Source of the DNA: Blasia pusilla
Lineage: Eukaryota
Assembly: GCA_050084515.1 (NCBI GenBank)
Contig: CM114271.1
Location: 10,292,001 to 10,356,000, forward strand
Length of the DNA: 64,000 nucleotides
Direction: 5' to 3'
The notes under the pieces are model-generated. The model made no database searches. It was given only the letters and a program-made list of their open reading frames with translations, and was not told where the DNA came from. This document shows, in pieces, positions 19,080-62,130 of this stretch (positions are counted from its first letter, which is position 1; each line of letters opens with the position of its first letter). A program made the position numbers and the translations under genes.

Positions 19080-19093
19080 CATCTTTCTCATGT
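19080..19093 (-). promoter_or_regulatory. Self-priming primer-binding site of family 1
   Basis: 19080-19093 (CATCTTTCTCATGT) is the exact reverse complement of 19263-19276, which begins 27 nt downstream of a minus-strand TATAA (19307-19303). Confidence 0.8.
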
Positions 19094-19901
19094 AAAATCA
19101 AGAGAAGTAAAAAATGGCTCACCTGGCCTAAAACTCCACTCATGAATCTACATTGGCATATCAAACCACATCCACCCTCTACTATGAGGGAATCCGGACG
19201 CTAGCACCCTAACTCCTACACATCCACACACGTCTATGCAAGAGAGGCGCTCCTAAGGCTCAACATGAGAAAGATGGCTTGATAAAGCCATCTCCCTCAC
19301 TCTTATACCCTTGGAAAGAGCCAAAAAGCTCTTCCCCCAAAAATAGCCCTCCCAACGGTAACCTGCGTGCACAGGTTACCAAGTAACCATTGACTCGGTC
19401 AACGGGTCACCTGATGGACTAAAGCCAAAATAGGGAAATCGCCATAAACGATGTTCCCGACACAACAGACCTGTTGCCAACCTCATACGACATCTCAGGA
19501 TGAAGTTACACCCAAATAGCCCGCTGACTATCTATACCGTTGACGCGATAGAATTCTACCTACGTCAAAATAAGATGTGACAAAGTGAATGTAGGCTCTT
19601 GGACATAATGACGAGGTCAAGTGGCATTACTCAAATTTCAGCTTAAGTAATCGCCTTTTGGATTGTCAATTTCCCACAAGTGATCTAGTGATGACTTGAG
19701 GTTTCTCCTAATCACACGAAGTATAAGGCTTTGGTTGTTTTCCCATCATGTCTATTTTGGGATTAGAAGGGACCATTTCCTTCCTGAACGACATATGTGG
19801 AATAAGACCAGTATTAGAAGTATCTGTCATAAACCCCGCAAAATTTTGATGTTCTCTTAGTTGATTTATGATGGATGTGTTGATTCATACCATAGAGCCT
19901 T

Positions 19902-20644
19902 TGTCATGCGAATACACATCGCTATCAACATACACATCGGTTGTCATGCACACACATGTCTAACATCCATCTAGCTATAAATCCTAACATCTCTATGCAT
20001 GAACGACTGGACAACCCCAATATAAAGTTGAATACAAAGTGTAAACTCTCATGAAATCTGCAATCAACCGTGCTTCATCCAAACAGCCATACTCATGATT
20101 CTGATACGCACTGGTGTGACAGCAAGAGAAAGTATACACAAGGATTCCTAAAATGTGTGATCTCCTTATTGATCACTCCTAGCCCACTCTTCAAGAGAGA
20201 ATCCAGGCTCAATTCATGCATGTCGTAGTGTATCACGGATCCCAACAAGGGTCTGCAATCCTAAGGAGATGAGCTCCAAATGAGACTCATCCGAGGTATA
20301 CTCCCCTGGGCACCTCCATGGATGACCTATACACAGAGGTCATCTCCCTCCTACCAGGTCACTACCAACCTGTAATACACCCATACTAGCTCCCTAACAA
20401 CTACACATGTGGTCCCCTCATGAGACCAACTACCAACTAACCCACGACCCTATAGATCCAAGTGGAGCCGAGCCATACATGGGTGGGAAGGTCAACCTCT
20501 CCAAGGTTGCCACTCCTCATAAAGGGAAGGGGGACCTACACTTGTAGGTCACCTCCTAAGAGCAGGTCACATATGACCTCTCAAAATAGGGAAGTACAAG
20601 ACCCCTCTAAGGCCTGGATACTATCTCTCCCTACGCCTCATCTA
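19902..20644 (-). repeat. Family-2 LTR: A segment 19902-20019 + AT + truncated B segment
   Basis: Starts TGTCATGCG. B is nearly identical to 33002-33619. The end of A is the reverse complement of the sequence after the PPT at 22292-22331. Confidence 0.85.
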
Positions 20645-22331
20645 GTGAGGAGTCGACAGGGACTAGAGACATCCACGATGATGAGATGGTCTTGGAGTAC
20701 CTGCGCACTGGTGTCGTAGCAAGCACGGTGGGTGCTAGAGAGCGAGATCGAGTCCTACGGAGAGCTAGGAGGTTCAGGTGGGAGGGGACGCGTGTGGTTT
20801 AAGTCTGGGAGGATGGACGAGTGCGAATGGTGCCGCATCCTTCACAGCAAGCACGAGTTGTGAGACATGCTCACGAGGAGTTAGGGCATTTTGGAGTCAA
20901 GCGTACGTATTGCTTGATATAGATTCAATATTGGTGGTGTGGTATGCAGACTGATGTTAAGCAGTTTGTAGCTAGATGCATTGTATGTGATAGGGTGCGG
21001 GCATCGTTCAATGCTCGACACCACACTTGCTTCCTTTACTGATCATGGGGTTAGGGTATCGCTAGAATTTAGACTTTGCAGGGCTTTTACCATTGATGGG
21101 ATGCCATAGTCGGTATGTGTTGGTCATGGTGGAGCACTTCTCCGGATGGATTGAGTTGGTAGGGTTGCCGGATAGGTCGAGTGAGGGAGCGGCTTATGCA
21201 TTTCTTGATAGAGTGCTTAGTCACTTTGGCGCACCAGTAGAGGTGTTGATGGACTAGGGTACTGAGTTTAGGGGTGACTTTCAGGCCTTGTGTGATTAGG
21301 CATTGATAGATCATCCTATGACTTCTCTAGATCATCCGGAGGCAGATGGTTTGGGAGAGAGAGTTGTGCAAACGGTGAAGAGAGGATTGCACAAGTATGG
21401 ACTGCAGAGAGGACACTTGGGAGATTGGGACCTACAGTTTCCGTGATTGGCGATGAGTTACCGCTTCAGTCGGCAGGCATCCTTGGCATCATTTTCACCA
21501 TATTTCTTGCTCTATGGGAGAGAGCCAGAGTTATCGGTGTCGATTCGACGAGATGTAGTTGAGGTACTTGACCTCGAAAATCTAGACGTATGTATGGGTG
21601 CGAGCGTGTTCTTAGTGGGCTGAGCTCTTTTGGAGAGTCATGCCTATGGCATTTGAGAACCTGGCTATCTCTCAACATCACGATACTCTGAGGTACGTGA
21701 CTACGCCTGGAGGAGGCTATCAACTAGGGATTCGGCGATTCCATCCTGTCCATTATGTCTATCTACAGCACGCAACGCCGATGACATTGGACGTGACAGC
21801 GGGACGCACTGTTCTGCGAGTGCGAGAGATTTTAGTTTCAAGAGTCCTTGTTTTAGAGGGTCGTGATGGTACCGTTTGGAAAGATCATGTGTGTAACTGT
21901 GCGCCATGTCATCTTCCCAACGTAGATGGGAGGATTGATCTGAGCTTGGGAGTTGTTCCTCCAGGCTTGAGATGCATGTTGTGTGGGTCTGCCACAGGCG
22001 TAGCCACGATGCTACTTTGTGATGGGTGTTCTCGAGGATGGCATATGTCGTGTTTGACGCCACCTCTCGACTTGGTTCCTCAGGGACGTTGTCTTTGTCC
22101 CAGATGTACATAGGTGTGATAGGTAGATACAAGATGACTCTTGATGTTATGGATTGCAAGAAGGTGACTAACGATGGGGTGACACAGCACCCGACCTCCT
22201 CATCTTAGCACTAAAAAATTGCATAGCATTTAGACTTGTTTTGTAGGCTATCTTGAGTTAGAGGGACCTAACCACCAGCTAGGGGGGCAATTCGAGTTTT
22301 CTAGTCGTTCATGTGTGGAGATGTTAGGATT
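20645..22331 (+). mobile_element. Gypsy integrase (HHCC, DDE core) with C-terminal PHD finger, PPT and start of a family-2 A segment; degenerate
   Basis: HEELGHFGVKRTY...CIVC, LDFAG, ADGLGERVVQTVK. ORF 21640-22113 ends CMLC-x9-LLCDGCSRGWHMSCL-x11-CLCPRC (C4HC3). PPT AGGGGGGCA at 22281. Confidence 0.9.
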
Positions 22332-22339
22332 AATCTGAG

Positions 22340-25300
22340 GACTCACCATCCAACCTCCCTCCTTGGAGTGGATGCCTCCTGCTGACTTGACATAGCCAAT
22401 AGACACAAAAAGGCACATGCGTGCCAACCCGGCACCATCTCCTCATTACTCTCACCATGCCACCGCGCTCCAGTCACATTGCTCTAGCTCGTGCATGGGT
22501 TACGGCTCAACCTGTTCGCATCTTGGCTCAAATGTCTTGGATGATGCACAACCTGAAAATCATACTCGTGCAATATGAGTGACCATTTGGCAAGCTTCTC
22601 TGTAAGCTTGTCTGACTCCATCAACCACCTGAGTGGCTGATGATTAGTGATGAGCATGAAAGGGTTCCTGAACAAATAACATCTGAAACGGGCCACTGCC
22701 CATACTGCAGCTAAGCACTCCTCCTCATAGGAAGTGTACTTCCCCTCCGCAGTGTTGTTTGAGCGGCTCACATATGCCACTACGAACTCCTTCCCCTCAT
22801 CACCAACCCTATCTGGCGCCCCCAACAACAAAATTTCGGCTGGCAAAACATGTTGATATCCCCTGACTGCAGACACTGGCAATAACTGAGGATACTGTTG
22901 GACTAGTCTCGACACATGATGTAATAAGACTCTACATGCAGTCTCATCCCTTTAAATATACAAGTACTTCTATACTCGTACTCCGGTCTGCAACACTACA
23001 GCCAACGCTGTACTAATCCCTCCAAATAGATCTAATATACATACACCCTCCTCGGGATACTGCCACAAAATTGGTATGGTGTCCAAGGGTGTCAACGTCT
23101 CCACTCCTAGAGCACGTGGTAACTTTGTCCCGTCTCGCTCTAGAGCATAGGCTCGGCTCCACGCCTATCTCACGAGCTCGTGTATTCTCCTCCACAAATC
23201 GATGCTCGTCCCCCAAAAAATTGAAGAAGTGTCGCCAACAGATGTAGGCAAGCTCGTCATTGCATGCCACTCCTCAAGACTATCTTGTGTAGGAATATCC
23301 TCTGCATTGGCGTTGCCCTCTTGTAAATCTCCAAGCCAACATAATGTGCCACAATAAGCAGCAATTGTTGTGGTCGACCCCCAGAGTGAACCATCAAGTC
23401 TCCCTGCAAATTGCACGGGTAGCTAACTGGCTCGTCCCTCACCTAACTGCCAACTGACTGACAGGAGGCTTTCTCCTCCCAAAAGTCAAGTGTGAATCCT
23501 AGAGGATACAATACGATAGCCCCTACCAAAACATCATAAGACTTGGCCGGTGTCACAACCGCTCGTGTCCGCACCATCACACTATCCCTAGGATGATTGG
23601 GCCGAATCCTCACTGCAATCTCATTGCAAGTCATGAACTATGTCGAGGATGTGCCTCCCAATGAATCCTGAATCTAGAATGGACATGGAGTGATCTCACA
23701 CTTCCACAAATCCTATCGCTACACATGTCGCCTTTCCCAACATAAGGGGTTGTGCTCTTGAATCAAGTAGCACTCTCTACGTCGATACATGACTCCGGAT
23801 GGACCAACCAACTGGACAACTCCATCTCGGTTGTCCAAGACAACAACTCTTGGTGAGACGGTTTTACGCTCTATCGCTGGTCTAGCTGGCAGCTCCGCCA
23901 CTCTAGCCGCTGCTGCATGCCAACTCTCTGTGGCTCTCATCCCGAGCACATGCTCCGAGGGTACCTCTGCCACATCTCCTGTGCGAGTCTAAACACTAGA
24001 AGAACCAAACTCATCGCTCTCATAGAGCATCGCCGCCAATCGGAAAACATTAGTTGGTCAACCTCCACATATCAACAAATCTCTGGCCGTAAATAGTGGG
24101 ATGCTACACAAAGCTATCACCATATCTCGTAATGTGCCAATACTAGGCCGTGTCAAATGCTGCATAGGCCTGATAGTCGTACTCGCCTCACCCGCTCCTC
24201 TAACTGCAGTGGCATCTATGACAAAAGCACTCCGCAAATGCCGTCTAGGGACCATTGATGGGGTCCAAAGAGCCTGTGACAATGTGAAATACTAGGGAAG
24301 TCTATCCTGCTTGCCAGCCTCTCCCCTTTAGGCATCCAACTCCACATCAGATCCTCGTGGCTTAGAAGCTCTCACCGCGGCTCTCGTAACCATTGCATTT
24401 GCATCCACTTGTGCGCTGTTGCACAAAAATCCCATATCTCCTAGATCTCTTGCCATATCCTAGGCTTGAGCAGATCCGGAAGTTGATGCGCTCCCTACAC
24501 CTAATGTAGATGCCTGCTGGGTCGTCATGGCCTGAAGGCGTTGCTCCAACTGAGCAATCCTTGCCAAAGCTGCCTCTGATGCAAGTGCTGCACTCACTTG
24601 GGCAGGTGGTGGGGTCCTACCTCCACCACGTCCTCGACCTTCTACACCTCGTCCTTTGCCACCTCCAGGTCCTCGACCTCCCTCTAGGCGCAGCTTGGGG
24701 TGGAGCTGGAAACATCTCTCACGTGCGTGCCCATATCTTTGGCAATGATCACACTGAGGTAAGGGTGGCCTACCCTGGGCCGCCTCATAAACAACTGATG
24801 GTGATGCAAACACTCCACTCTGCTGTCTATAATCTCGCTAACGATGTGATCCTCTATACGTCCAACAAGAAATACCTGAGCGTTGCTGCCCAGCATATGA
24901 CTGAACTGGTCATGGTCCTGGCTCGCCGTATCCTCCTGTAGCCCTCGGTCCCATGACTCTATCTTGAGTAGTGCATTGCGGCACTGATGGAGACACCATC
25001 ACTCGTGTTGTCTCCCTCGAAGATGATGCGCCTATACTCAAAACTCTCTCCTCAAGTATGTGGAGCTCAATCCGCTCCGCGAACAAAAATACAGACTTGA
25101 GAGTAGGCGAACCAACATGTTAGAGAGTTGCATCTCGCACTCTCTTCCGCAACTCGTGGTCTAGTGTCGCATACCAGAACTTGACCGCTTGCGCCTTCGT
25201 CACACCCTTAGTTGTTGTGATCAACCGTCAGAGTCGTGCATAGGCCTCTCGAAGACTCTCTCCCGCTCTCCCCTGAAACTCATGAATCGACTTCAGCTTG

Positions 25301-26280
25301 TTAGTCCTCACCCCCTGATAGTTCCTCCCCAACTCTCGGAAGAACTCAACCAATGGGTTGAACGCGGGTGGTACTTGCCTGGTCACAATCGTAAGACTCG
25401 GGTCGAAAACTCCTCCAAGTGTCTCCTCCGTGCGGTTAGTGGGTTCTACTATAGCCGCCACATCAAACATTGCACGTCATGTGAGGGACACATATCCTAG
25501 AGACCAAAATAGTCTCCAAGCCTCAAACTCCATCTCATGGAGAATCCAAAACTCATGATAATCATCCCTGGGAGGGCCCTCCAGATGCTGAAAAAGTCCC
25601 TTCCACGCCATAAAGGGGTCGAATCTCTACTGGTTTTGCATCCTCTATGCATCGCACCAACTATCAAAATCCTCCATAAAATCATCCAACTCGATGGTTA
25701 CCACCATGCTTGAGAACCATCGGGGTCCCCTCGTGGACCCATATGTATCACAATCATCCATGTCCCACAACAATGGTGTGGCAACATTCGCGATACTCCG
25801 TGGCCTCTCGGGTAACTCAGAATCTGCTGACGTCACCTCTGGAGTAACTAAAATTCGAGGCTAAGGTGGTTCCTCATGTGGAAACCCTCGATACCTAGCC
25901 CCACTCCGCGTAAATCCTCCGCCACTTCTACCATTACCACGCTCCCCAATACTATGTGGATGCGCCGTGGTGAAACCTGCAAACTATTATGACTCACTCT
26001 CGAGCCGCTAGCTTTGCACTAGACTATGCCCAAACGGTGGACACGCCCCCACTTATCTCACTTGAGATCAACACTCGACAAATAGCCCGCACACTAAATC
26101 ACTCCCGACTAGTGTGGTATACATCCATCCCACCAAGCTCTCTACAATAGTCACCATAGTGTCGTGCACTCACCAACGCACTAATCCACAATGTGTGTCA
26201 CCCAAAAAATCACCCCTCAAACATCTCCATAAGCAGTAGGGTAAGTGAATAAATTCCCCTGTGTGCAATAGCTAGCCATG
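22340..26280 (-). mobile_element. Degenerate Gypsy internal region: gag-CCHC, protease, DNMT N-terminus fused by deletion to RNase H
   Basis: Gag fragments 25836-24460 (CDHCQRYGHARERC), protease ~23780-23480, DNMT-like segment ~23070-22806, RNase H VVAYVSRSNN...EEECLAAVWAV...TNHQPL...KLAKWSL (22800-22484). Confidence 0.88.
22806..23070 (-). pseudogene. Retrotransposon-borne C5-cytosine DNA methyltransferase fragment (motifs I-III region, DNMT3-like)
   Basis: Manual translation: GVCILDLFGGISTALAVVLQTGVRV*KYLYI*RDETACRVLLHHV...LPAEILLLG, resembling the DNMT3-type [29 protein letters not shown] SAM-binding motif. Confidence 0.78.
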
Positions 26281-26317
26281 ACTTCCTTGTGGGTATGTTG
26301 GTAACACAACATGCAAA

Positions 26318-26377
26318 AGAACTCCCCAGTTAAGCACACTCTAGAGGAATAGAACTGGGATGGATGATCTGGAAGTT
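26318..26377 (+). pseudogene. 5S rRNA-derived fragment (internal promoter region; Cassandra-like)
   Basis: AGAACTCCCCAGTTAAGCACACT...AATAGAACTGGGATGGATGATC-TGGAAGT aligns by eye with plant 5S AGAACTCCGCAGTTAAGCGTGCT...AGTAGTACTAGGATGGGTGACC...GGGAAGT. Confidence 0.75.
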
Positions 26378-26551
26378 ATGTTGAACTGGATTAGCATCAG
26401 CTTGCCAAGTCCTCACGCCCGCTAGCAAGTTGGCTTGTTGGCAACGCCTCTCATGCCCACTCATACCTTTGAAGCCTCTAAATTCCGAGAATGCCCGTGA
26501 TTCAGCTGCCTCACTTGTTCGCCACGCTTCGCTGCGCCAAACTCACATGTG

Positions 26552-27955
26552 AATGGGAACTTCAATTCCGATTTCGCGCCGTGCCACAAACGCCGGATCC
26601 GCAAGAAACTAAGGTGGGAATGGGAACTTGGGTTCCGATTCTCACCCACACCAAAAGAGACTATCTCGGGATAGAAAAGGGCGACTGAATGATCCCAATG
26701 GAACTTGAGTTCCGATTTTTGCGTCGCTTTGCCAACTCGCCTAAACTTGGACGTTTGAAAATCCTTCACCTGAAAGAGTGCCGAATTAGAACTTCAGTTC
26801 CAAATGCTCTTGGCTCACTCCTTCCTTCACAAAAGAATGACAAAATTTGAACTTCAATTCCAATTGCTCACTCCTCCCTCTCTGCTTCATGCGCCGCGTC
26901 GCGCCTTGGTAGGGAGAGTCGCGCCCACTTCACACTCCGTGGATTGGAACTACAATTCTGATTCTTTCTCCTTCCTCCCTTGCCATGCCTGAAGAAGAGC
27001 CATGCCCCACTTGAGAGGTTGCGGAATAGGAACTCTAGTTTTGATTCTCCTCTCCTTCCTCTGAACGCCGTGTTGAAACTGAGAGTCACACCGACCTCAC
27101 TCCTTGGGCTGCGCCAAAGGGGATCAGAACTTGAGTTCTAATTTCCCTCACTATCCTCTCCATCTCCCTGAAGAGAACCCATAACTAAGGAGCGGAATCA
27201 GAACTAGAGTTCTGATTTCCTCCTTCCTATCATCTCCACCTCCCTGTAGAGAAGACCCACAAGTGAAGAGCGGAATGGGAACTAAAGTTTGAATTGCCTC
27301 CTCACTTCACTTCACTTCCCCGCGCTGCTGCACTATGCCACGCGGTAGTCAAACTGCAGTTGGGACGCTCCACTGTTCTCCAACTGATATAGAATTGGAA
27401 CTTGAGTTCCCAATACTCCTTGCTTCCTTTTCACTCCCGCTGTGCCAATCTCTGCTACGCCGTCGAGATGATCACCATGCAGTTGAACCACGCCTTGGCT
27501 CAACTGTGCTTGAAATGGAACTTGAGTTCCAAATCCCTTTTGCAACTTCTTGTCACCCTTGCCACACTGTGCCGTGCCACGCCCTTCAGGTGACTCGGCC
27601 CTTGCTGCTGAATCAGAACTTCTGTTCCGATTCGTACTTTGCCGCTTTGCTCCAAACTGCCTCTTGGGAGGGATCTCCTAAATCAGAACTTAAGTTCTCA
27701 TGCCTCCCTCAATTCCACTAACTCTGTGGCTAGCAGTCCTAGCTATGCTCTAGTAACAGCTCCAAACTAGTGGCACCCCAAACCTTTCTCAACCTCTCAC
27801 CGAGGGAAAGCTACATGGTAGCTTCTTTCTTGCCTTTCCTGAACCACGTTCACAAGGGAAATCAGAACTTCAGTTCCGATTGAATGAAGAGCTCTCCTCC
27901 CTCCTCACTCCTTCTCACTTTCCAAACAAGGGCTATCAAAACTTAAGTTCTAATG
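26552..27955. repeat. Array of 16 spaced 22-bp palindromes, consensus AATC(A/G)GAACT-NN-AGTTC(C/T)GATT
   Basis: Copies start at 26552, 26619, 26696, 26784, 26844, 26942, 27025, 27122, 27196, 27274, 27393, 27513, 27611, 27681, 27860 and 27934. Confidence 0.9.
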
Positions 27956-28487
27956 CCTTGCACAACAGCTTCAGCACTGCACTCCTGCCCTCTCACATCG
28001 GTGATCCGCTCAACTCAGGGAATCTACGTGTCCGTAGGGTTTAGGGTGCAGGGAATCTTTTGGAATCCTCCTCAAATGAGCTCCGTTTTTTGTCCCGTTT
28101 TTATTGTTGGACTCAGATTTTTGCGATCTTTCCAACATTCATCTGATTTGGTCCAGAATCAAGCACTCCTCACTCAAAATCAGCAACGAAGTGCCCATGC
28201 ACTTACTGACTTGCCCACACTCAATCGTGTCACGATTGACACAGATTTTCTCACCAAAATTATCTCAGGAATTCTGTCCCCACAATCTGATCCTCAATTG
28301 CTCCACTCTTGAGCAACTCCATCAGGATTGAGAAGCCTCCCCCTCTTCAAATCCTGTCACGTTTGTCGCATTGCACAGATTTCTCAATTTTGAACATCTC
28401 ACTTTGATTTCAGCAATTCTTCTGCCCCATGTCCTTCCGCATGGTCAGGATACACTAGCTTTCAATTCTTGCAAATTACTCAGGAAA

Positions 28488-28560
28488 TAGTGGTCTCTTG
28501 GGAATAAACTTAATACTTTTCGATTAAAGGAGTATCTTTTTCCTTGAGTTGTACATTATA
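28488..28560 (+). repeat. Terminal fragment of a family-4 LTR
   Basis: Reverse complement of 62131-62200 (...TTGAGTTGTACATTATA). Confidence 0.75.
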
Positions 28561-28800
28561 GACACAAAGTGGAGTGAGATACCGAGGGGTTTTGAGTGAG
28601 GAGCTACCTCGACTTCCATCCGTGGCTGGATCCTCATCACTAGACAGTGGGTCAGGTGATGAGATTGCGACGGAGGCAGTATCACTTGGCAAGAGATGAA
28701 GAATATGGGTCATCGGGGCATGCGTCGTTTCTCAGGTGCGGTGGGCACCATCGACTTAGACGACTTCATCCAAGAATTTGACACATGGTGCAACTTCCAC
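28561..28800 (+). mobile_element. Gag N-terminal fragment of the family-1-like Gypsy
   Basis: HRGMRRFSGAVGTIDLDDFIQEFDTWC matches the 15962-15726 minus-strand gag. Confidence 0.85.
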
Positions 28801-31800
28801 ATATCCAGCACATATACATCGATGTCATCAAACATACATACAAATACACACAATCCCATGCTAACTCATGGAATCTACACAACGAGACGAGAAGTACCAA
28901 AATATCTCCAATAAATCGATCAAATCTCACACCAAGCTCTCCATGGTGTGCACACTCTCTCTCTTGTCAAACCAAACCCACTCTCCTAATGAGAGGATGA
29001 GATTACACACACAAGGCAAGGAGGACCATAGCTCTTCCGCCTCATGGCAAGAAGTTCAATAAAGAGAGAATGGGCTCTCAAGCTTTCTCTCTTAGAGGTA
29101 TATCCCCTTCCCTCTCCCAAGCCCTCTCCACGGTAACTTATGCTTGCACGTCACCTCCTTGGCTCTTGAGTTGCTGTAGCGGATCAAGGGCCACTTCCAA
29201 AAGTGGAAAGTCAACTATATTCCAAATGGAAACTTACCTAAAATAGGAAGTTTTTCTATATGGCTCCAAATGAGCCAAAACGAAGGGGAAAGGTGCTCTC
29301 ACAGGTTATTCATGGCCTTAGCAGTCATCCTCGACCTCTTGAGACGTCCTCATGTTTCTCTTAAGGCGCTCTACTATATCTTGTCGATCTATCCTAAAAG
29401 ACATGACAGATATCGTGCGCATACATATCATTACACAATATACATCGTAGTCACTAAACATACATACAAATACACACGATTCCATGCTAACTCATGGAAT
29501 CCACACAATGAGATGAGAAGTACCAAAATATCTCCAATCTTCCCCCTAATTGGTGGTTAGGTCCCTCTAACTCTAGATAGCCATCTATACCAACCTACCA
29601 TGACATACATCTCTCGGACACTATGAGCAAAAAGTCAGGTGCTCATGTGGCCCCATCTTTAGTTGCCTTCTTGTCATCCATGTCACAGACACAAGTCAAA
29701 ATCTACAACTATATATTCTATGTATATGTGGGGCACATCCATCAACCCCGAGGATCCCTAGTGAGAGGTGGCGTCAAACATGTCATATGCCATCCTCTCG
29801 AATATCCATCACAGACTGTCATAGTAGCTGCACCACGGGCAGAACCACACAACATACATCACAAGCCTACAGGAACTACTACTAATCTTGGATCAACTAT
29901 ACCGTCAATGTTAGGAAGGTGACATGGTGCACAGTTATGCACATGGTCCTTCCAAACCATACCATAGCGTCCGTCTAACAAGAGAACATCAGGTGGAAAA
30001 ATCTCACGCACTCTCAAGATAGTGCACCGTGTAGTTACATCCAATGTTGTGGGCGTTGTCTACTACAAGTAGACATAGTCTCCCTAATGAAACCTCCAGA
30101 TAGTAGGTCAGTAACCACCTCCCGGAATAGTAGCATACCTCAACGTATCCCGAACCTACACTATCGCCAAGTTTTCAAACGCCGTGGGAATCACTCTCCG
30201 AAACAACTCAACCCTCTCAGAATATGCTCACATCCACACATCAAGATCATCAAGGTTCAACACCTCACCAGCATCTCGACAAATGGCCAAAGGTAAATCT
30301 AGCTCTCTGCCATAAAGTAGCAAGTACGATGAGAAAGATGCTTAGGATGCCTGCATGTTGAATCTTTATCCCATTGCTAACCATGGAAATTGGAGGTCCC
30401 AATCTCCTAGGTGACCTCTCTACAAGCCATACTTGCGTAAACCTCTCTTCACCGTATGCATAACCCTCTCCGCTAGTCCTTCCGCCTCAGGATGATCTTG
30501 CAAAGTGGTGTAGTTGTCGATCAGTGCTTAGTCACACAAGGCCTGAAACTCCCCGGAAAACTCTATACCCTGGTCTGTCAACACCTCAACTGGTGTGTTG
30601 TAATGACTCAACACTTGATCTAGGAAGGCATACACTACTCCCTCACTCGCTTTGTCAGGCAATGCATCCAAATCTATCCACTTCGAGAAGTGCTCCACCA
30701 TCACCAAGACTATGGCGCTCCGTCAAAGGTAAAGATCTTGCAAAATCCAAAATCCATCTATAATCTAAACCCATGATTGGAAGTGGATGCAACTGTGGAG
30801 TTGGAGCATTGAACAATGCTCGGACCCGATCACACACCATGCACCTTGCAACAAATTGCAGAACGTCAGTCTGCATGCCTCGCCGCCAATATTGTATCTA
30901 GAGCAAGCTATATGTCCGCTTCACTCCAAAATGACCCAACTTCTCATGGGCATGACACACAAAACGTGCTCTCTATGAAGGATGAGGCACTATAATCCTC
31001 CCAAACTCGGAACACATGTGTCTCCTTCCACCAAAATTTTCTAGCTCGCTGTAGGATCCGATCTTGCTCTCTAGCACTCATTGTGCTCGCAACGCTAGCA
31101 GTACGCAGGTACTCGAAGACTACTCCATCCTCGTGAATGTCTCGACCACCTGTTGTCTCCTCACTGGCCTCTACATCTAAGGACTCTCCGTCATACCTCT
31201 TCATCGAAGTCTCAACAATCTGGCTCTCCATACCCAACAAGCCCAAATAGGCTGACGCGTGCCATCATGGCATCAACTCCTCATCACTCTCTCCATGCCA
31301 TCGAGCTCCAATTGCATCTTGCTGACTCGGATATGGGTTACGGCTCAAACCATTTGCATCATGGTTGAACGTCTTAAGTCTATGCACTACTTGGAAATCA
31401 TACTCGTGCAACAACAAAGCCCACCTCGCAAGCTTCCCTATAAGCTTGTCGGACTCCATCAACCACTTAAGTAATTAATGATCATTAATAATGGTAAAGG
31501 GATTTTCGAATTAACAACACCTGAAATGCACGATATCCCATACTACAACCAAACACTCACCCTCATATGAGCTATACTTCACATCTACAACGTTTTTCAA
31601 GTGACTGGCGTAAGCCACCACGAACTCTCTACCCTCATTGTCATGCTAGGCAAGCATGGCTCCAAGCCCCAACATGCTCCAGTTTGTATGCAACTCAAAA
31701 GGATGCCCCCTGATCAGTCTCCTCAATATGGGCGTGGACGTCAATCTGTCCTTCAACAGTTGAAATGCTCCCTCTTGCTCATCCCCACCAATGCCACTCA

Positions 31801-32252
31801 TGATCCACCTTGGTTAGCAAGGTTAGCAATTTTGCAATCGAACTAAAATCCTTCACGTATCGTTGATAGAAGTTTTCCAATCCCATAAATGCATGAACTC
31901 AACTCACATCTGTAGGGCTTGGAATGCGGGAAATAGCCTCTACATTCGTCTACTGCACACCAAGCCCCCTGGGTATATCGTATGACCCAGGTACTCAATC
32001 TGGTCGTAAAAGAACTTGCACTTGCATGGATATAGCTTCAACCCGTGGAACTCCAATTTTTGAAACACCTCCTCCAAATCTCGCTCATGCTCCTCAATCG
32101 TGGCGCTAAAGACTATGATGACATCAATATAACATCTAGCAAAATCCAGACCTGCCAAGATCCTATCCATGACCCTCTGAAACTCGTCCGGGGCATTTTT
32201 TAACCCAAATAGTAAGGACCTATCGGACTTTGTTTGCCGATTGATAGGTTGG
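28799..32252 (-). mobile_element. Gypsy family 3, 3' half: RT-RNase H-integrase-PHD-PPT, then permuted A-nn-B-A repeats
   Basis: RT FGLKNAP...CYID (32230-31940), RH KLARWAL, IN CMVC/LDFA, PHD CMLC...VCDG...WHMTCLTPP (~29860-29725), PPT 29547-29539. Repeats: A 29411-29536, GA spacer, B 28913-29408, A ~28799-28910. Confidence 0.88.
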
Positions 32253-32900
32253 TGTAATGTACAACTCAAGCAAAAGGTACTCTTTTTTATTGCAAAATAT
32301 TAAGTTCGTTCCCACGAGATCACCGTTTCCTCAATAAAGAGAGGTTTTATAAGAATGATAAGGAATTTCTTTTTCACTAAGCACTTCACTAGCTGCAATG
32401 ACTCGGTTTTCACTAGTACAAAAGATCAAATGGTTTTCTTCCCTCCAGGCACAACTCTTCTAAAGTACAAGGGAAGAATCCTGCGAATCTTGGATGCCAA
32501 ATTTCCAACGAAGACCTCAAAGAGACCTCAAGAAGGTGGCAACTCACCCTACTTTCAGAAGTGAATGTGTCATGGCAGGTTACTCACTATCTAATAGCTT
32601 TCCTATGCTCTTCCTGATTATCCTCTAGAATCCTGAAACCAAAGACTCAACTCTCATCCATACCGCAGCCCAATAAGATTGGCATTCAACTCCGCACATC
32701 ATAAAGGATGAATGAGGATACTTTTCCTGCATCAAAGAGTGGAGGAAACTAGAAAGTAGTACAAGATTTAGAGTGCACTAAACTCTTCGGCTTGGATCAT
32801 CCCCAAAGACTTCTTCACACAATCAACAAAAATACTAGAAACTCAAGACACAAGGGAATGACACCGTGCTCTTCTGCTTTACTCTTTAAATAATCTCTTT
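32253..32900 (-). repeat. Partial family-4 LTR interrupting the family-3 RT
   Basis: TGTAATGTACAACTCAAG start, collinear with 62131-62800. Confidence 0.85.
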
Positions 32901-32987
32901 AGAATTCATGATTGACCCTACAGCACCACAGTTGTGTTCTACACCACAAATTGAGTCCCACGTGCTCTTCTATTCAAAACCAGCGTG

Positions 32988-33619
32988 CATCTCCTTAGGA
33001 TATAAAGTTGAATACAAACTGTGAACTCTCATGAAATCTGCAATCAACCGTGCTTCATCCAAACAGCCATACTCATGATTCTGATACGCACTGGTGTGAC
33101 AGCAAGAGAAAGTATACACAAGGATTCCTAAAATGTGTGATCTCCTTATTGATCACTCCTAGCCCACTCTTCAAGAGAGAATCCAGACTCAATACATGCA
33201 CGTCGTAGTGTATCACGGATCCCAACAAGGGTCTGCAATACTAAGGAGATGAGCTCCAAATAAGACTCATCTGAGGTATACCCCCCTGGGCACCTCCATG
33301 GGTGACCTGTACACACAGGTCACCTCCCTCCTAGCAGGTCACTACCAACCTGTAATACACCCATACTAGCTCCCTAACAACTACACATGTGGTCCCCTCG
33401 TGAGACCAACTACCAACTAACCCACGACCCTATAGGTTCAAGTGGAGCCATACATTGCTGGGAAGGTCAACCTCTCCAAGGTTGCCGCTCCTCATAAAGG
33501 GAAGGATGACCTACAATCGTAGGTCATCTCCTAAGAGCACGTCACATATGACCTCTCAAAATAGGGAAGTACAAGACCCCTCTAAGGCCTCGATACTATC
33601 TTGCCCTACCCCTCATCTA
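32988..33619 (-). repeat. Family-2 5' repeat (B segment) with self-priming PBS 32988-33001
   Basis: 33002-33619 duplicates 20022-20644. CATCTCCTTAGGAT is complementary to 33238-33251 (1 mismatch) and to 20258-20271 (exact). Confidence 0.82.
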
Positions 33620-34091
33620 CCATTACACCTTCCACCTTCTTGCTTTGATTTTCTTGCTTAAAAGAGGGGGAAAAATCCTTTAAGTTAGCCAAATGCATCG
33701 GATCAGATACTCTCAATGTTATGAAGATTTTGCAAGGTTCAAGTTGAATCACATAAATAATTCAGTCCAGACTAATGGAATGGATAGGCTTTCCAAGACG
33801 TGACACAAGAAGTTAAATTTCTACAAAATTGCTCAAAAGATCGATTACTTGTTGTAGTTATTTGATGGACTCAACTCTCTTCTGTTCGATTTCTACTTAA
33901 TTACAGCATTTGAAAAGATTATGGCTACATGTTGCCTACACCATGTTAGGTTGCATGTAGCCAAATCTAAAATGACGAGGGGCGTTGTTGAAGTACACAG
34001 GTCTAAATTCTTGAAAACCATGAAGAACATCCTTAATGTGGTTGTGCCATCCTGTAAATTGAAAGTGAAGCTAATTCAAAACAAACAAAAA

Positions 34092-37050
34092 AATAGTAAG
34101 GTGCGCGTGCAATGCACGATGTACGTAAGGTGGTAAAGGTTGTGGGTATTTTCTTCGATGTACACACGGATATGTGCGGTGGGATGCTAGTAGAGGAAGA
34201 TATTGGTGATTTGTTTGTAGCCATGAGAGAAGTAGAAGATCTTAATATCAACCATGTCATTGCTCTTGCCTCTCATTGGCATCCTAATGATGCAAAAACT
34301 ACTAAGGTTCTTGTAATATAATTACAAATTATATTTCATCCAAGTATTTCTTTACATACTACATTTCGTTTGTATCTTCCTTGTTTGAATGTTCATTGCT
34401 TCCAACGGTAATGTGGATGGAACTTCTTTTCCCTACTCTACATAATGCTATATACAATTGACCATGAGAAAATACATCAATAGGCAAGTAAATGCTAACC
34501 TTTTGCAAATTTTGACCTTGAGGCTTATTTATAGTCATAGCAAAAGTTGGGCAAATAGGGAATTGAAACCTACGTAAATCAAATGGCAAACCAGAATCCG
34601 ATGCAATCAATGGGATACGTGGAATGAAAACTCGATCTCCAATATTCTTCCCTCTGATGATTTCAGCATCTATGCAACGTTGCATAAATCCACGAATCAC
34701 CAATCTCGTTCCGTTTGCTAACTTGTGCTTGTGACCCATTCATGTTTCGTAAGAGCATGATTGGTGCACCAATCTTCAAATTTAAATAATGCGGAGGTAG
34801 TCGAGAAGGCAAGCATGTGTTCAAAAATTTTGTTGGATGGATATGGCTTATCCCCTCATTTGGAATAGAGTTGACGCTGAAGTAAATATGCTCCTATACA
34901 CAATATGTAATGCATTCGTGATAAAAAAATAGTATGTTGGTACAGAAAGATAGTTAAAAAAAACCTAAATTCTAAAGCCTAAGAGAAAAAATCCATGAAG
35001 AAGATGTATGCAAGTTAAAAGATTACCTCTCTTGGAAACCCAAATATAATATGTACATTTATGTCATCAACATCTTTATTTCTTAGAGTCAAAAGAGTTG
35101 TATCTCTCAAGAAACCAATGTCATGGAATTGGCAAGGAGAATTGCCATAGATCAAATAAATAAGATTAGATAACTTATTACTATTCGTAATAATTTCAGA
35201 TGGTAATTGTATGAAATCTTCCCCCACATAAGGGTGCAAAGATACACGACCCTCTTCCACTTCCAATAACCAATCAGAAAAACCTTGTTGTTCAGCACGC
35301 AATTAACCTTCCAACCTTTAAACTTGCATGTTTGTTGTCAACTTCTTGACTTTACATTAGACCGAATAAATGATCTCTTTATGGTAGCTTGGATGATTTG
35401 TGGCTGATCCCCATGACGAACAACTGGCAACACTTCACGAAAGTCGCCACCAAATATGATAAGTTTTCTGCCAAATGGTATTTGCCCTAGATCATCTAAA
35501 ATAACTCCCATAACATCTTGTAAAGTGCGATTCACATCCTCGAATGCATGATGATGAGTCATAGGTCCTTTGTCCCATATAATGAGCATTGCTTCACAAA
35601 TTAAGCATGCTCCATTATTATCGACTAATAAACTATAAATGACAGAGGAAAATAAATTAGAAGTTGTAATAATTGGACTAATTAAAGTTTATGTATCAAT
35701 AGAATTTCATGTCAAGTGGTTAATGACACTTACTTGCAAGTAGAGCTCTCATGACGATTGATGGGGATCTTGAAACGAGAATGTTTTGTATGTCCTCTGT
35801 GCTCTAGATAAAACAGTTATTCCAGATAATGCTACAACCAATGCTATACCCCTTAAAATTCCTTACAATTGCAAGGAGAAGATTATATAGAAATGTCTTT
35901 CCCGTCCTACCTTGATCATCGATGAAATTATTTTTTGAAGATGATGGAGCATTTAAGCTTATTTGATTAAGTTCATCATGTGTAGCATCCCAAATAACAC
36001 GTTTTCTTTCATTCAGACATGCTTCTCCAAATTGCACTTGCTGAAATAATTCTTCCGTATCAATAATAGTTCTTGTTTCTCCAAATATGAATGTGAATGA
36101 AGGCTTTGGAAATTAACTTGGGGCATGTTAGGAAAGTTAGATAGTCTCTTTCCTTGATCTTGTGAATAATAATGAACTTCTAATAATACATTATTAATGA
36201 TATCATCATCAATAGGAAGATTAAGAATTCATGTTTTCTGCAATGGAACAGTTCCGGAATCATGTGAAGGTTGAATGTATCTCTCTTCCCCATGAATAAC
36301 ATGGACTTGTAGCCTCCAAGTCCTTTGAACGGTATTCCGGGATGCCAACATGTTTCACCGTAGTTAAATAATAGAACAAAGTGTAATGGAATGTATATTT
36401 CATTGAGGTCAGATATATGCCTCATCCCTCCTTCATGCAATCGTATAATTATGTTACGATGGTCAACGTGTTCGCTTCCATCACTTGGCAAAATAGCAGC
36501 AACCTCAGAAGCAGTTGGTAAGTTATAACGCTTTGCATGAAGATCTCTCAGTCTTATTTGCCTTGAGGATGATATACATACAAAGATCACTTGCTTCAAA
36601 TGTCATATGACGAAAGATCTCAACATATGGATTGCATTGATGTAACATGTCTTGTAGCCCTTTCAAGATGTCTACATTAATATCAAAAAATATACACATA
36701 TTTCTTACCCGATTCTCCAATTTATTCGCAATATTATGAATATAGAGTTGAGCAAATTGGGAGTGGCCTCCTATATGAGGATGTAAGGGTTCAATAGAAT
36801 GATAGATGCCGCCTTGGACCCTAAAGTGTGCAGTGCCACCAACTTGTTCATTTACATACACTTGAGTAGATGCAACTTGAAGTGTAGAATTGTAAGCTCG
36901 AGCATGTGTAAAAAAATGAAGACTTCTAAGACCAACACTAGAAATCAACGATTTCAGGAATGGAGGAGACGCTTTCTAGAGGGGTAATTGTATTCTCTCA
37001 TGGCCTCAATATGTGCCGTATGATGATTCACTAAACTTTGTACCTTTGAC
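34092..37050 (-). mobile_element. Degenerate Helitron (RepHel N-terminus and PIF1 helicase; central Rep region deleted)
   Basis: FAQLYI, YNLPTASEVAAI, GRTGKTFLYNLL, IIWDK, FGGDFREVLPVV, QFPICPTFAMTINKPQGQ, VFSHGQLYIALCR. 3' hairpin CGTGCA-A-TGCACG at 34106-34118 next to a mutated CTAG. Confidence 0.9.
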
Positions 37051-39959: not shown

Positions 39960-40343
39960 TCACCTGAAAAATCGCCTCCTAGCCCACAACTTAGCAATTG
40001 AAGGTGTGAGTACAACCGTCAAGGGAATGCGCACTGGAAGCAGAGCTTTGTTGCACAAGAAGGCTACTGCAAATGCTCCGCCCTCTTCTAACACTTTAAT
40101 TTTATTTCCAGCAGCAGCACTGTCCATTTTCTCAATCACCATCCCAATGGGTTCCAGATCTGACGAGTTTCTAGGGCTCGAGACGAGTCCCGCTCGCTGG
40201 AGTAGATCATTCACGTCCACATTGTTCTTGATCGCCACGTAACACGAGGTGTAAGAAGCAACAGACACTGACAGATGAACAACCATGGCTACTCGTCCAT
40301 ACTTGGTAAAGAGCTCCTTCAGTCGTGCTCCTGGTCGTTCCAT
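39960..40343 (-). CDS. DUF1279 / FAM210B-like membrane protein, 127 aa
   Basis: RLKELFTKYGRVAMVVHLSVS...YVAIKNNVDV...GGAFAVAFLCNKALLPVRIPLTVVLTP is the DUF1279 pattern. Intact ORF with ATG at 40343. Confidence 0.88.
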   Translation of the reverse strand: MERPGARLKELFTKYGRVAMVVHLSVSVASYTSCYVAIKNNVDVNDLLQRAGLVSSPRNSSDLEPIGMVIEKMDSAAAGNKIKVLEEGGAFAVAFLCNKALLPVRIPLTVVLTPSIAKLWARRRFFR

Positions 40344-41347
40344 CCTCCGATTTAACCCAACCCACAAAGTTGATGTCGGGTTCTACGTCTCTACTTAGGT
40401 CCTATCTCCATGTTACAGTCCAGACTAAACAAAACCTTGCGAGCCAAAAGTCCCCTTCCAGCTCCTGGTCTACCCAGCTAGCCGCAACTCCTCCCAAGTC
40501 AGCAAAGATACTCCTGAATTTCTGACCTGAGTCCTATATCTGAGGAGCTGAATGTCGCATTCTTCAATGGTTACTACTCTCCCTACATTTCCGCTGTGTC
40601 TTGAAACTTTGATGTAGGTAAACTGAACCCTAATATTCAGCCTTTCACGAAAATCGATCACAAGTTCGATTATCCTCCAGAACTGTTCTATGCACGGAGA
40701 ACTAATGAACTTATTTCAACAACCCTACATTTGTGAACAGTCCACGAGACATTAGGAATTCGAAGTGTATGACATCGCAATCCATTCCCGGTAGAGTGCC
40801 TCAGCGTTACCGAGTGGATTTGATCGTATGTTCATTCGATCGTAGCAGCCGAAGAATGGGTTGAAGATCCATCTCCAATCAGTCAGGAGAAAGATGTGGT
40901 TGCTTTCATCGCGGTCTTCCCTTCCGCTTACTTCGTAGCGTCCATGCCTCCAAGAGAAAGTTCCGCAAAAATCGCAATTCTGTGTTCAACGAGCCCTCTG
41001 GGTGTTTGACGCGGAGCGCTACCCCATGCGCATGGCCAAGGGATAGGAAAAACATAGCCCTGGCATTTACTGCTAAGCACGTACGTGAGGAATCACATCG
41101 AAACGCGGGATATCCACCATAACCCGCGATTCGGACTGGAGCCGAAAAACGTCACACTAACGGGATTTCGGTAATATGCCGAAATCCCGGCATATTACCG
41201 CTACCGTTTTCGGCAGGCCATGCGGGAGGGTCATGTTCGCATGTATGGCATGGCCATGATGAACCCATGGCTGTGGGCATGGAATCCTCGCATATGGATG
41301 CCCATAGACAGCCATGGCAATGGCATCATCACACGCCTGTTCACCAT

Positions 41348-41653
41348 GCCACACAAGGCGCGCACGAGGAGGTCCTCTTCATTGGTCTTGACATGGCGCT
41401 CTCAACAGCGATCAAGTGTGCAATTTCTTCGTTGCAATTCCTCTTTGCCACATGTTTGGGTGGTGACCTGTTTGGTGCAAGCGTTTGGTGTTGGTTGTTG
41501 GATGGAGGAATATCCCTCACCCTAACCCTTAAATGTTAGAACCCAATTTATAGAAGAACACGATGCAAGGAATAAATTGCACACTTGATCGTTGTTGAGA
41601 GCGCCATGTCAAGACCAATGAAGAGGACCTCCTCGTGCGCGCCCTTGTGTGGC
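41348..41653. repeat. Long inverted repeat (~90-bp arms, ~127-bp loop)
   Basis: 41348-41436 and 41564-41653 are near-perfect reverse complements. Confidence 0.9.
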
Positions 41654-44399
41654 CATGGCTGTCTCCAACATTCCTTCAAGCTTACCCTAATCTCTGCCCA
41701 ACCTCCATGGCCTATTCATGCATGAGTGAAATAGAATTGAGCATGTCTTTAACTTCCTACCTACGATTAGAGGATTTCGCAAGCATCAATTTGTAGGGAG
41801 TGGATCTGGAGCACCTTTTCTAATTCATTTGTTTTGTGGTCTTCGTCGCATCGAATGTTTCCATTTTTTACGACATTCATGGTTTTGTAGACTTGTAAAT
41901 TATCCTTTATCGCCCACGAAATTGCGGGGAATGCCCACAAGGTTTTGTAACCTCCCAGGCTCTTAAGTTTCCCTGACCCTAAATCCGACATGGATTTAAT
42001 CACCAAATCCAAGTAATGCATAGAAGGTTTTTGTATCCTTCAGGATTATTACATTTCTACTTCCCAACCTTTATCCACATTACTTAGTAGCTTGATGTAT
42101 CGGTCACAAGCATATAGCCTCTTCTCTAATTCATATCAATCCCAAATGACATCCTACAATTGCTGATGAATTTGTAGCATTCTAGGGTTAGACTCTTATG
42201 TTATGTGCCCTAAACCAGATCATTTCCTCACATTCTACATCCCTTTAGGGTAAACCTGAATCCTACATGCATGGATTGAATCACCAAATCCAAAACGTGG
42301 TTGCTAAATGAGGCCTTTATTTTAGGGCAAACTTCAATCCTACATGATTCAATCACCAAATTCCAAAACATGGCATTCAGATGCAACGCATGGCTTCCAA
42401 TTCCTTCTGCATTCTTCAACACTAGGTATGACTGTAGAGCATTCTTTTACAATCTTCACATTATTCCTTCTTATGTATCATATCACACTAGAAAATCATG
42501 GAAAAATTAATCTCGTATCCTTTAGGGAAATTGCAAGGAATGTAGAGATGTAAATTATCTTTTTTTGCCTTCCAACTTGCAGTGAATGTGAACACGGTTT
42601 TTGTATCCTTAAAGATTGTTACATTTCCCACTTCCACAATTGTTGATAAATTTGTACCATTTAGGGTTTAGACACTTTATCATGCTTTGTACCCTAAACC
42701 AGATCAATTCGCCACATTTCTACAATTTTTCTTGCTAAATGAGGCATTCACTTAAGGGTACACCTAAATCCTACATGATTCAATCAATATATCCAAAACA
42801 TAGAACTCATATGCAAGGCATGGCTTCCATCTTAGTGTCATGCGCCAACTCCTCTTAAACGTCAATCTTTAGTGTTGCAGAAGCGTACGTTCAATATGAC
42901 ACGCTCTCATTGTTGATCTACACCCAAACACACTCACGTTAGTCTAGTCTGGGTCAATGAGCCTTCCAACCCACCAAGTCCTCAACTCAACATCTCATCA
43001 AGCTCAACCTTCCTTATTCCTAGCTTCCCAACATGTGCAACTCTTCCAAGACTTAGGATAGACTTTTTGGTTAGTCCAAGCACACAAAACATCGTTCACG
43101 CGCCTAGCGGTCCCAACTATCCAATGGACCTCGCATGAGTCCCAAACCGAGACCCAACTAAATGAATCACGGGTTGGAATCCAATAGGGACCTCCGAAAT
43201 CCAATAGGGATTTTTTTTGGATTCCGAGTCCCAACGCCAAACTCCGGATCCATTCTGTGCCCTTGGGTCGCCCCGCGGCACTCCAAAGTGGGGTTCGAGT
43301 CCCAAGAACTCTTGGAGACGTTCTCCCTTACTAGTACTTATGGGGTTCTTGGTCCTCCCCCTATCTTTGGGTAAGGGACGTTTGGGCTACTCTTTCTTGC
43401 ACTCAACCCAACTCCCCATACAATCATTTTTGGGAAGTTTCTCAACTTCTGCTTGTGTATTTGCTAGAATCTTTGGTGTGTTGGAACCAAATTTGCATAA
43501 CATCTTCAACGCCACCTTATTTGTTCCAAACGCATCTTGGAAACTAAAAATTATGGTCCATAATACAGTCAAAATCCTAAACGCTAGTCCCGTTTCAAAT
43601 TCGGTTCTCACCTCTTTGGCAACCACTCTTTCTAAACTCAACTCCTCTCAAGTCTTGGTTCACTTTTGGTTCATGTTTCCTAGTCGGAACCATAAACGCA
43701 TGAAACACTAAACCTTATTCGTGTCTCATCTTATGTCTTTTGTGTCTCTTCCAAGAGACCACTCCAACGTGCAAACCATCCTAACATGAGCCCACTAGAG
43801 TTCTAATGTTCCGCTTGTCGCTCGTTTGGTTATGAGGATCACAACATTTAGGGTGTATTCTGCAAGAATGGGCATGACTGTAGAGCATTTTTGGATAATC
43901 TGAAATTTATTTCTTCCCGCATGTCATGCTATAAAACGCAATATCCATCTAGTGACTTTCAAATTCTATTTTCTTCCTACATCCAACTCAGTCACTAGAG
44001 TAGGAATTTCAGCAATATCAATTTCACTAGCACCAAAGAAATGATGCATAAATATTGCATCTCTAACACTTTACAGATATGAAAATGTGATATATTTGCA
44101 ACTCCATCATCTTCCTCCAGTAAATATTTTGAATTAGCCTTCACCTCCATATAATGTACTGCCCATGGTCTTGCTAATATGCAACGGGGCGGGAGCCCCA
44201 GTAACAGTAGTATGCCCATCCTCCTTGGTAGTAAAAGTTGTAAGAGGGCTACCACATTGGCCCTATATTAGTTATGCCTTCGATTATGTACAAAGAAATG
44301 GCATACTCACCATCTATCGTCACTTTTTTGATAAGCAGATGATATTTTGTATGCCTTGCAAAGGCGCCAACACCATTCATGCTTAAAGGACTCAATCTA

Positions 44400-47960: not shown

Positions 47961-47974
47961 GACTTCATGTAGAG

Positions 47975-62098: not shown

Positions 62099-62130
62099 AG
62101 ACCCACAGGTACCCCACCAAGCACTAGTAC

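Follow-up and report, generated by a model that had tools for sequence, protein, structure and literature searches.

A putative self-primer-binding site and permuted terminal repeats in a Dnmt3/PHD-carrying Ty3/gypsy retrotransposon of Blasia pusilla

Self-priming of reverse transcription is established for Tf1/sushi retrotransposons, in which the fission-yeast long terminal repeat (LTR) always ends in CA before the primer-binding site (PBS) and the integrase carries a chromodomain (bioRxiv 2022.12.06.519325), and it is predicted for the plant Tcn1 and TAR lineages (PMC6317226). Split direct repeats in the order A1-genes-B1-A2-B2 occur in PAT, TOC, Kangaroo and Ngaro, elements with a tyrosine recombinase (PMC4157794). 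In Klebsormidium nitens, KnitGypsy-Dnmt3 has a Pol of the Gypsy type that includes a Dnmt3-like domain in unrearranged form (de Mendoza et al. 2018, PMC5890265); the legend to Fig. 4c of that paper gives its repeats as those of DIRS (A-coding-B-A-B, Fig. 1e) and its domains as Gypsy, the portions of the text available mention no PBS, priming, target duplication, PHD finger or circular intermediate for it, and its name was not met in the other literature searched. The REXdb lineages Phygy and Selgy are Ty3/gypsy elements of non-seed plants with 4-bp target duplications, tRNA priming (Trp, Ala) and no extra domain; the program that detected them requires full LTR pairs with TG/CA and duplications (PMC6317226). 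Foamy-virus integrase is reported to cleave a palindromic LTR-LTR junction, as a side route (PMC1180852). Here we analyse a 64,000-nt stretch of Blasia pusilla DNA (GCA_050084515.1, contig CM114271.1, positions 10,292,001-10,356,000; hereafter the window), which is rich in transposable elements (TEs) and belongs to a 390-Mb genome in 26 contigs. A 14-mer at 32988-33001 of this window is best explained as the PBS of a self-primed Ty3/gypsy retrotransposon from a clade that carries a Dnmt3-like methyltransferase and a PHD finger.

We call A the long promoter-bearing repeat (the B segment of an earlier, sequence-only reading of the window) and B the short repeat of 107-180 bp. The element has permuted terminal repeats in the layout A-PBS-genes-PPT-B-A-B, PPT being the polypurine tract. 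Compared by description, as far as the available excerpts of the cited papers go, it has in common with KnitGypsy-Dnmt3 the Dnmt3-like methyltransferase in a Gypsy Pol and the A-coding-B-A-B repeats, and adds to that description self-priming, 4-bp duplications, the anatomy of the junctions, joints that number in the thousands within a single genome, and a family that is non-autonomous; it very likely is a member of the KnitGypsy-Dnmt3 clade. The split direct repeats (A1-genes-B1-A2-B2) are those of PAT and Ngaro, but they accompany a Ty3/gypsy reverse transcriptase (RT) and RNase H, a DDE integrase, TG...CA ends, a PBS, a PPT and 4-bp duplications. Phygy and Selgy are likewise Ty3/gypsy elements of non-seed plants with 4-bp duplications, whereas the element described here is self-primed and has a methyltransferase. 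With Tf1/sushi it shares an RNA 5' end (here inferred) complementary to a PBS beside the 5' repeat, a fixed distance from a TATA motif and a PPT-primed plus strand; it differs in that A lacks CA before the PBS, the repeats are split and permuted, and a PHD finger stands in place of the chromodomain. The duplex measures 13-14 nt here and 11 nt in Tf1. Self-priming alone is already known; the larger point is the permutation of the repeats together with integrase-type ends, which the sequence-only reading did not contain. The literature searched, which did not extend to most subscription papers or Repbase, held no account of self-priming or of a joined intermediate for this clade.

Features of the element are given on the minus strand throughout. 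The 14-mer at 32988-33001 (CATCTCCTTAGGAT) is the putative family-2 PBS (ATCCTAAGGAGATG) and directly follows A1 (33002-33627), which starts with TG and does not end in CA. The sequence-only reading had placed this 14-mer against the repeat and had proposed that it pairs with a tract inside it, and both observations stand: the repeat ends at 33002, the segment 33238-33251 is the reverse complement of 32988-33001 with 1 mismatch, and 20258-20271 is so exactly. The 14-mer has 3 matches in the window at up to one mismatch (0.04 expected; at least 3 matches in 0 of 100 shuffles). The tract at 33238-33251, 13/14 complementary to the PBS, is the predicted RNA 5' end and self-primer, a transcription start being expected there from the TATA-like motif GGGTATA at 33277-33283. 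That box had been put roughly 25-30 nt upstream; it does lie at 33283-33277, 26 nt before the tract and at the same spacing in other family-2 copies, although the 20-kb copy reads GAGTATA. Minimum-free-energy (MFE) folds of both window copies (family 1 and family 2) include the PBS-tract duplex, but only the family-1 fold, with 14 bp paired, beats shuffles (z = -3.4); the family-2 tract is paired with the PBS in the MFE and centroid structures, with a whole-fold z of -0.86 that is not significant.

The pairing extends to other families with unrelated sequences. A PBS complementary to the family-3 tract had been predicted, and in 12 of 13 PBS-bearing 5' copies at least 12 of the 14 positions are complementary to the copy's own tract. 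These came from 16 family-3 A copies with intact ends and B on neither side, found with an A-only query or inside fetched stretches, of which 13 continue into ACAAAGAGAGAATG-like sequence and 3 into neither B nor PBS; the commonest tract in the 12 pairing copies is CATTCTCTCTTTGT, and the window copy's ...TTTAT is a variant of ...TTTGT. Own-PBS pairing was found in 27/27 family-1 and 20/25 family-2 copies (queries for both included the PBS), leaving out five stretches with false PBS matches inside A (L107, L116, L118, L120 and L138). Family 4 turned up in an unbiased sample of 40 joints; its PBS begins one base later, its duplex is 13 nt long, and a relaxed pattern of A end plus PBS has 776 matches, versus 0 in the control. 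Two further tract/PBS pairs come from metagenome contigs of other hosts (M1 and M2). Over these six families of this genome and other hosts, own pairing reaches 13-14 and foreign pairing 5-9 positions, with 11-12 between the sister families 4 and M1; five PBS sequences are unrelated, and each tracks its own tract. The spacing between TATA motif and tract is fixed across families. The proposal that sequence changes while pairing and geometry are kept is thus borne out, whereas a CATCT start, seen in families 1 and 2, is no general rule (CATTC in family 3, CAG/TAG in family 4, TAG in M2). No PBS of these families begins with TGG, tRNA-fragment matches not having been searched for. Families 1 and 5 have the same tract.

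Covariation, the check that the sequence-only reading had proposed, points the same way, each of the six PBSs fitting its own tract and the first pair of family 4 covarying. Among 87 family-4 elements on contig C1 up to 45.84 Mb, the first pair, read by hand, is C:G in 41, T:A in 28, T:G in 15 and C:A in 3 (Fisher p = 6e-9), with wobble in excess of mismatch (p = 0.008). This pattern may have arisen through reverse transcription, with the primer serving as template for the PBS, and not through selection for pairing alone; priming is implied either way. RNA of organism A, the source of the reads described below, contains both alleles at the first tract base, as well as a PBS ending in A. Single-copy mutations in families 1-3 are uncompensated, as expected from decay after insertion. 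For all families examined, the A|B joints place the end of the repeat at the edge of the duplex, and only M2 pairing can reach 3 nt inward. Own-tract pairing, TATA spacing, family-4 covariation and the repeat end at the duplex edge all support self-priming, on which the sequence-only reading was, to judge from the sequences, very probably right. An 11-nt register of the Tf1 type, with A ending in CA, was considered and rejected: it fits families 1 and 3, where the PBS begins ACA, but not families 2, 4 and M2, and the A|B joints stop before ACA. A hairpin of U3 with the tract that would hide the 3' copy is significant in family 1 (1% of shuffles; window 19263-19300) and marginal in family 4 (6%); it was rejected as a general feature, with none in families 2, 3, M1 and M2.

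The permuted layout recurs across the genome. An internal B|A joint, GCACGACA-RY-TGTCA, contains the palindrome GACA-RY-TGTC and has 2,104 exact copies, versus 1 in the control; outside RY-selected loci, 21/28 spacers are RY. Each half of the palindrome forms one end of an integrated copy. Sampling the first 40 B|A joints of C1 gave 33 B-A-B, 2 B-A-PBS, 3 interrupted, 1 fold-back and 1 unrelated case, and PPT-B units run on into exact NN-TGTCA in 415/607 cases, five of the remainder having, by eye, an A|B joint about 470 nt downstream. A full LTR pair is absent: 1 of 65 PBS-followed A copies is preceded by B, and that B lies behind a PPT (family-1 and family-2 queries included the PBS). Perfect 4-bp target duplications flank 5/5 readable family-1, 1/2 family-2, 0/2 family-3 and 7/11 family-4 elements and 4/11 solo A-B units. 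Five loci of other hosts (L234, L242/L243, L247, L249 and L253), 40-48% identical in RT, have A-genes-B-A-B as well, one of the five with a perfect duplication and three more at 3/4. Variant arrangements include B-A-PBS units at L060/L130, L161 and L179, with a PPT upstream in L060 and L161 (tandem elements with one common B+A LTR), a B-A-B-A-B concatemer (L194) and a tandem run of three tract-PBS units spaced about 1,040 bp apart (G000:C1:7358044-7360304). At L180:465-1000 (element sense) a fold-back joins the primer tract straight to the A end in reverse complement and runs on over the full length of A; it is either the sequence of primer plus minus-strand DNA or a product of recombination through tract/PBS homology.

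In sixty 10-kb stretches the gene order is A, PBS, gag, zinc knuckle, protease, methyltransferase, RT, RNase H, integrase, PHD, PPT, B, A, B, that is, gag-protease-RT-RNase H-integrase with the methyltransferase between protease and RT. The protease was assigned by motif alone, with no Pfam match, and the Pfam domains are RVT_1, RT_RNaseH, rve, Integrase_H2C2, PHD and DNA_methylase. The DDE integrase occurs together with TG...CA element ends and a target duplication. PF00145 is above cut-off in L131 and L111 and just below it in L123; the Dnmt3 subclass was read from motifs and from the paper of de Mendoza et al. No tyrosine recombinase was found among 28 open reading frames (ORFs) scanned or in the domains listed for 164 homologue rows, and a chromodomain (PF00385) occurs in one of 120 homologues listed, outside the clade, a PHD finger being present at the integrase instead. 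Homologues with these domains occur in Marchantia polymorpha (RT 75-84%), Calypogeia, Sphagnum, Closterium, Chara, Klebsormidium, Haematococcus and many metagenome contigs; the viral contig collection held no relative. In a quick RT-RNase H tree of 67 rows, from which Sphagnum, Chara and references for Tf1, Tcn1, Phygy and Selgy were left out, the placed homologues form one clade apart from other Gypsy elements (SH-aLRT 99). Three K. nitens Gypsy proteins fall in the same clade, with the limited outgroups of this tree, and none is labelled KnitGypsy-Dnmt3.

The A|B joint carries the imprint of the presumed cDNA ends. In every family examined, the last base before the PBS is joined to the first base after the PPT, which are the expected ends of a linear cDNA with an LTR of B+A. 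The joint has the exact length in 20/20 family-4, 8/9 family-5, 5/8 family-1 and 24/38 family-3 cases, and the single non-exact row of the family-2 tally is a spurious match. PBS bases are kept at the joint in L085 and L012, a PPT remnant is kept in L102, and 6 of 38 family-3 joints hold one additional A, which is the base that starts the PBS; similar remnants are known from retroviral circle junctions. Before the joint, A ends in TTTT, TTAT, TTT, TTTC or TAAT. Distances between B1 and B2 within versus between elements are 0.041 vs 0.058, 0.065 vs 0.093 and 0.066 vs 0.086 in three families.

RNA reads were mapped on the family-4 3' end from three runs (X11, X12 and X13) of organism A, which may not be the window's species. 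Sense-strand depth is 105-256 over the 3' untranslated region, B1 and U3, tapers through A, and falls to 0.4, 5 and 8 in the B2 bin adjoining A; just past the end of A it is 0.3, 2.5 and 6.5% of that at the B1/A2 joint. In X11, B2 depth is about 1% of neighbouring A depth, and 28 reads run from A into the PBS. The RNA thus appears mostly to end inside A2, as these reads show in part, so that most of it could not template B2.

These features fit together in the following scheme. Transcription would begin in A1, some 26 nt beyond the TATA motif, and most of the RNA would end inside A2; the first 13-14 nt of the RNA would pair with the PBS, a pairing that the covariation shows, RNase H would cut off the paired tract, as the literature on Tf1 suggests, and minus-strand DNA would be primed at the last base of A. 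The plus strand would be primed at the PPT, which is seen directly before B, and standard strand transfers would then yield a linear cDNA B-A-PBS-genes-PPT-B-A whose LTR is B+A. The PBS-side end of this cDNA is without CA and for that reason would presumably be no integrase substrate. Both cDNA ends would be joined, as the junction anatomy suggests, giving the A|B joint, and the DDE integrase would cut GACA-RY-TGTC of the 5' LTR after each CA. Insertion of the A start and the B end with a 4-bp duplication (the termini and the duplication are observed) would give A-genes-B-A-B. We regard the course as far as the linear cDNA as highly probable, and the whole chain of self-priming, end joining and internal integrase cut as likely. 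In IS3/IS911 circle junctions a DDE enzyme cuts the palindrome of abutted ends and frees two processed ends, and the putative cut here would resemble this reaction and that of foamy virus; in those systems, however, the cut site is the joint of the DNA ends, whereas here it would lie within the LTR as an inherited site, and the true joint of the ends (A|B) would be a separate, uncut site kept in the integrated copy.

Several observations weigh against this scheme or parts of it. In a free 2-LTR circle the B|A joint is present twice in identical form, and cutting either copy should also give the form A-B-A-PBS-genes-B, which is absent (0 among 586 family-4 A|B joints). Six of those 586 joints are followed by NN-TGTCA, five leading to no family-4 A and one being B-A-B-A-B, and A-B-A-PBS was found in 0/40 of the C1 joint sample, with one ambiguous case (L179). 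Symmetric cutting of a circle is therefore rejected, since the A-B-A-PBS-genes-B form is missing, and the one-sided cut has to be added to the scheme as an assumption; timing (the 5' joint becoming double-stranded first), an RNA splint or methylation could, as conjecture, account for it, and more speculatively the element's own methyltransferase might mark one of the two CpG-containing joints. An element's own B1 is strictly nearest to its B2 in only 4/31 elements, the exactness of most A|B joints is equally expected from templated inheritance or splinting, and the tree test of the extra A is weak (12 rows). Read-through into B2 is nonzero in X12 and X13, RNA coverage tapers near any 3' end, and the RNA runs show no sharp 5' end at the tract; a pile of fragment ends (29/115 and 25/123 reads in two runs) lies at L197:363, the first base of the TATA motif, with a poly(A) site or library bias as candidate causes. 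As for priming, an exact 14-nt blind prediction of the family-4 PBS had 0 matches and was wrong by one base, and the main family-4 pair classes follow two subfamilies, so that they amount to about one compensatory event, not 28.

An alternative interpretation, which we consider unlikely, keeps self-priming and supposes that read-through RNA across A2-B2, or its cDNA, serves as template or splint for the A|B joint and B2, with no free end-joining of the linear B+A cDNA. Templating or splinting of this kind is the model for the PAT/Ngaro split-direct-repeat elements. It is favoured by the base-exact majority of joints, by the one-sided cut, by the read-through in X12 and X13, and by a layout like the A1-B1-A2-B2 described for PAT/Ngaro in the available part of PMC4157794, but B2 lies out of reach of a minus strand that starts at the PBS, some joints keep PBS or PPT remnants, B2 depth in X11 is about 1% of that of the adjoining A, and B1 and B2 do not form separate lineages, the between-element B1-B2 distance equalling B1-B1 and B2-B2. 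Rather less probable still is a course in which the integrase of the self-primed element begins by cutting the linear cDNA at its 5' B|A joint, the earliest to become double-stranded, and holds and inserts both cut ends, the free A end and B start being joined later by host repair or an end-to-end jump of RT, with no free circle. This is the variant of our preferred explanation that accounts for the asymmetry, and with it the missing A-B-A-PBS forms and the repair-like remnants at joints would be explained, while the B-A-B-A-B of L194 fits an end jump or unequal recombination; it would leave a double-strand break at every insertion and is hard to reconcile, as chromosomal repair, with the high share of exact joints.

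The remaining alternatives concern the pairing itself. That the complementarity forms a leader-RNA stem for packaging or translation, with priming by other means such as a tRNA fragment, is very improbable: a priming product was not observed, which leaves room for it, but the A|B joints of all families examined have the repeat stop at the edge of the duplex, the five unrelated PBSs track their own tracts, and none begins with TGG. Chance, or an inverted repeat left by local rearrangement, could be entertained for a window full of nested insertions and with an inversion, but the 3 matches against 0.04 expected, the hundreds of copies genome-wide (family 4 among them), the conservation in other hosts, the own-tract pairing and the covariation refute it, and its probability is negligible.

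Joining self-priming, end joining and the internal cut, we think on balance that in a green-lineage Dnmt3/PHD Gypsy clade of liverworts, mosses, charophytes and chlorophytes, reverse transcription and integration use separate ends, end joining is obligatory, and only the internal palindrome of the 5' LTR is cut. Retroviral 2-LTR circles are usually regarded as dead ends; if this reading is true, an LTR retrotransposon lineage would normally integrate through an end-joined, 2-LTR-circle-like intermediate, the layout of PAT and Ngaro would have been reached independently, and the clade would have been missed by LTR finders that need paired TG...CA LTRs. The DIRS-like repeats of KnitGypsy-Dnmt3 could be accounted for by the same mechanism. 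In thousands of genomic copies the apparent joined cDNA ends are found inside each insertion, beside the internal integrase palindrome, so that integration by way of an end-joined intermediate can be put to the test directly in bryophytes, Marchantia polymorpha among them. Our results suggest that the annotation of early-diverging plant genomes captures too little of an abundant TE clade that carries a methyltransferase.

The family-2 element occupies 19902-33627 (minus strand, termini TGTA.../...GACA) and is shown to be one element by self-comparison of the window and by comparison with other copies, being colinear with L111, L118 and L126. It is flanked by a perfect 4-bp target duplication, CCTT/CCTT on the plus strand, at 33628-33631 (5' side) and 19898-19901 (3' side), and contains nested insertions between about 28476 and 32925 and an inversion at 20642-22334. 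Its gag, zinc knuckle, protease and the start of the Dnmt3-like region lie at 22811-26198 (minus; broken frames, 87% to L126), PF00145 being found for this region in the related copies L131 and L111. A deletion of RT puts the RNase H region (22335-22802, minus) beside the methyltransferase remnant. The inverted segment (plus strand) holds integrase, PHD finger, PPT (22279-22289) and the start of B1 from 22290; A2 (20022-20644, minus) lost its first 8 nt at the inversion and has the tract copy at 20258-20271, and B2 (19902-20021, minus), which begins as does B after the PPT, ends in GACA, with the A|B joint at 20022/20021. Nested in this element is a truncated family-3 element (28812-32220, minus) with RT, RNase H, integrase, B1 (29411-29538), A2 (28913-29408; tract 29060-29073) and partial B2 (28812-28912).

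A complete family-1 element, A1-PBS-gag-protease-PPT-B1-GT-A2-B2, lies at 11944-19582 (minus) with the duplication AAGT/AAGT on the plus strand. Its A1 spans 19094-19582, its tract 19263-19276 and its putative PBS (ACATGAGAAAGATG) 19080-19093; B1 (12985-13123) follows the PPT (13124-13134), the B|A joint GACA-GT-TGTC is at 12979-12988, and A2 (12083-12982) and B2 (11944-12082) complete the element. Only gag and protease were recognized in this copy and in L092, L094, L102, L103, L104, L106 and L109, RT and integrase not being found in them, and judging by this coding content family 1 is an abundant non-autonomous partner. A 761-aa hAT-like transposase is inserted in two family-1 copies (L091:5423-7705 and L101:3345-4136), with zf-C17orf113 above cut-off and DUF4371 and hAT dimerisation below; two others have long antisense ORFs (L098:5023-6414 and L104:4275-5186, minus), by eye RT-containing fragments of another retroelement, that of L098 having no Pfam match.

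Other copies in the window are a family-1 A-B unit with a 141-bp internal duplication (61330-62099, minus) and a diverged family-3-like A copy (4896-5345, minus). Mutual insertion is frequent among these elements (window 28800/28812 and 61329/61330; L169, L183, L190 and L200), several times antisense within gag or inside A or B, possibly through targeting by the PHD finger. Another repeat has three copies (32253-32921, 46863-47953 and 62131-63671), lies beside an integrase C-terminal fragment at 46661-46930 and is probably a second Gypsy lineage. Ty1/copia fragments (RVT_2, Retrotran_gag_2) occur at 218-1408 (plus) and 1939-3666 (minus), and Helitron-like helicase fragments at 34362-36975 (minus) and 47939-49051 (plus; PIF1 match 47939-48532). 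Host-gene exons lie at 39963-40382 (minus), 7689-9572 (plus) and 52685-53152 (plus); they comprise a FAM210A/B-like domain and, judged by eye, a metallophosphatase-like and an FAD-oxidase-like ORF, the two scanned having no Pfam match at E 0.01. Self-inverted segments resembling miniature inverted-repeat TEs lie at 41344-41658, 5724-5788 and 51790-51839.
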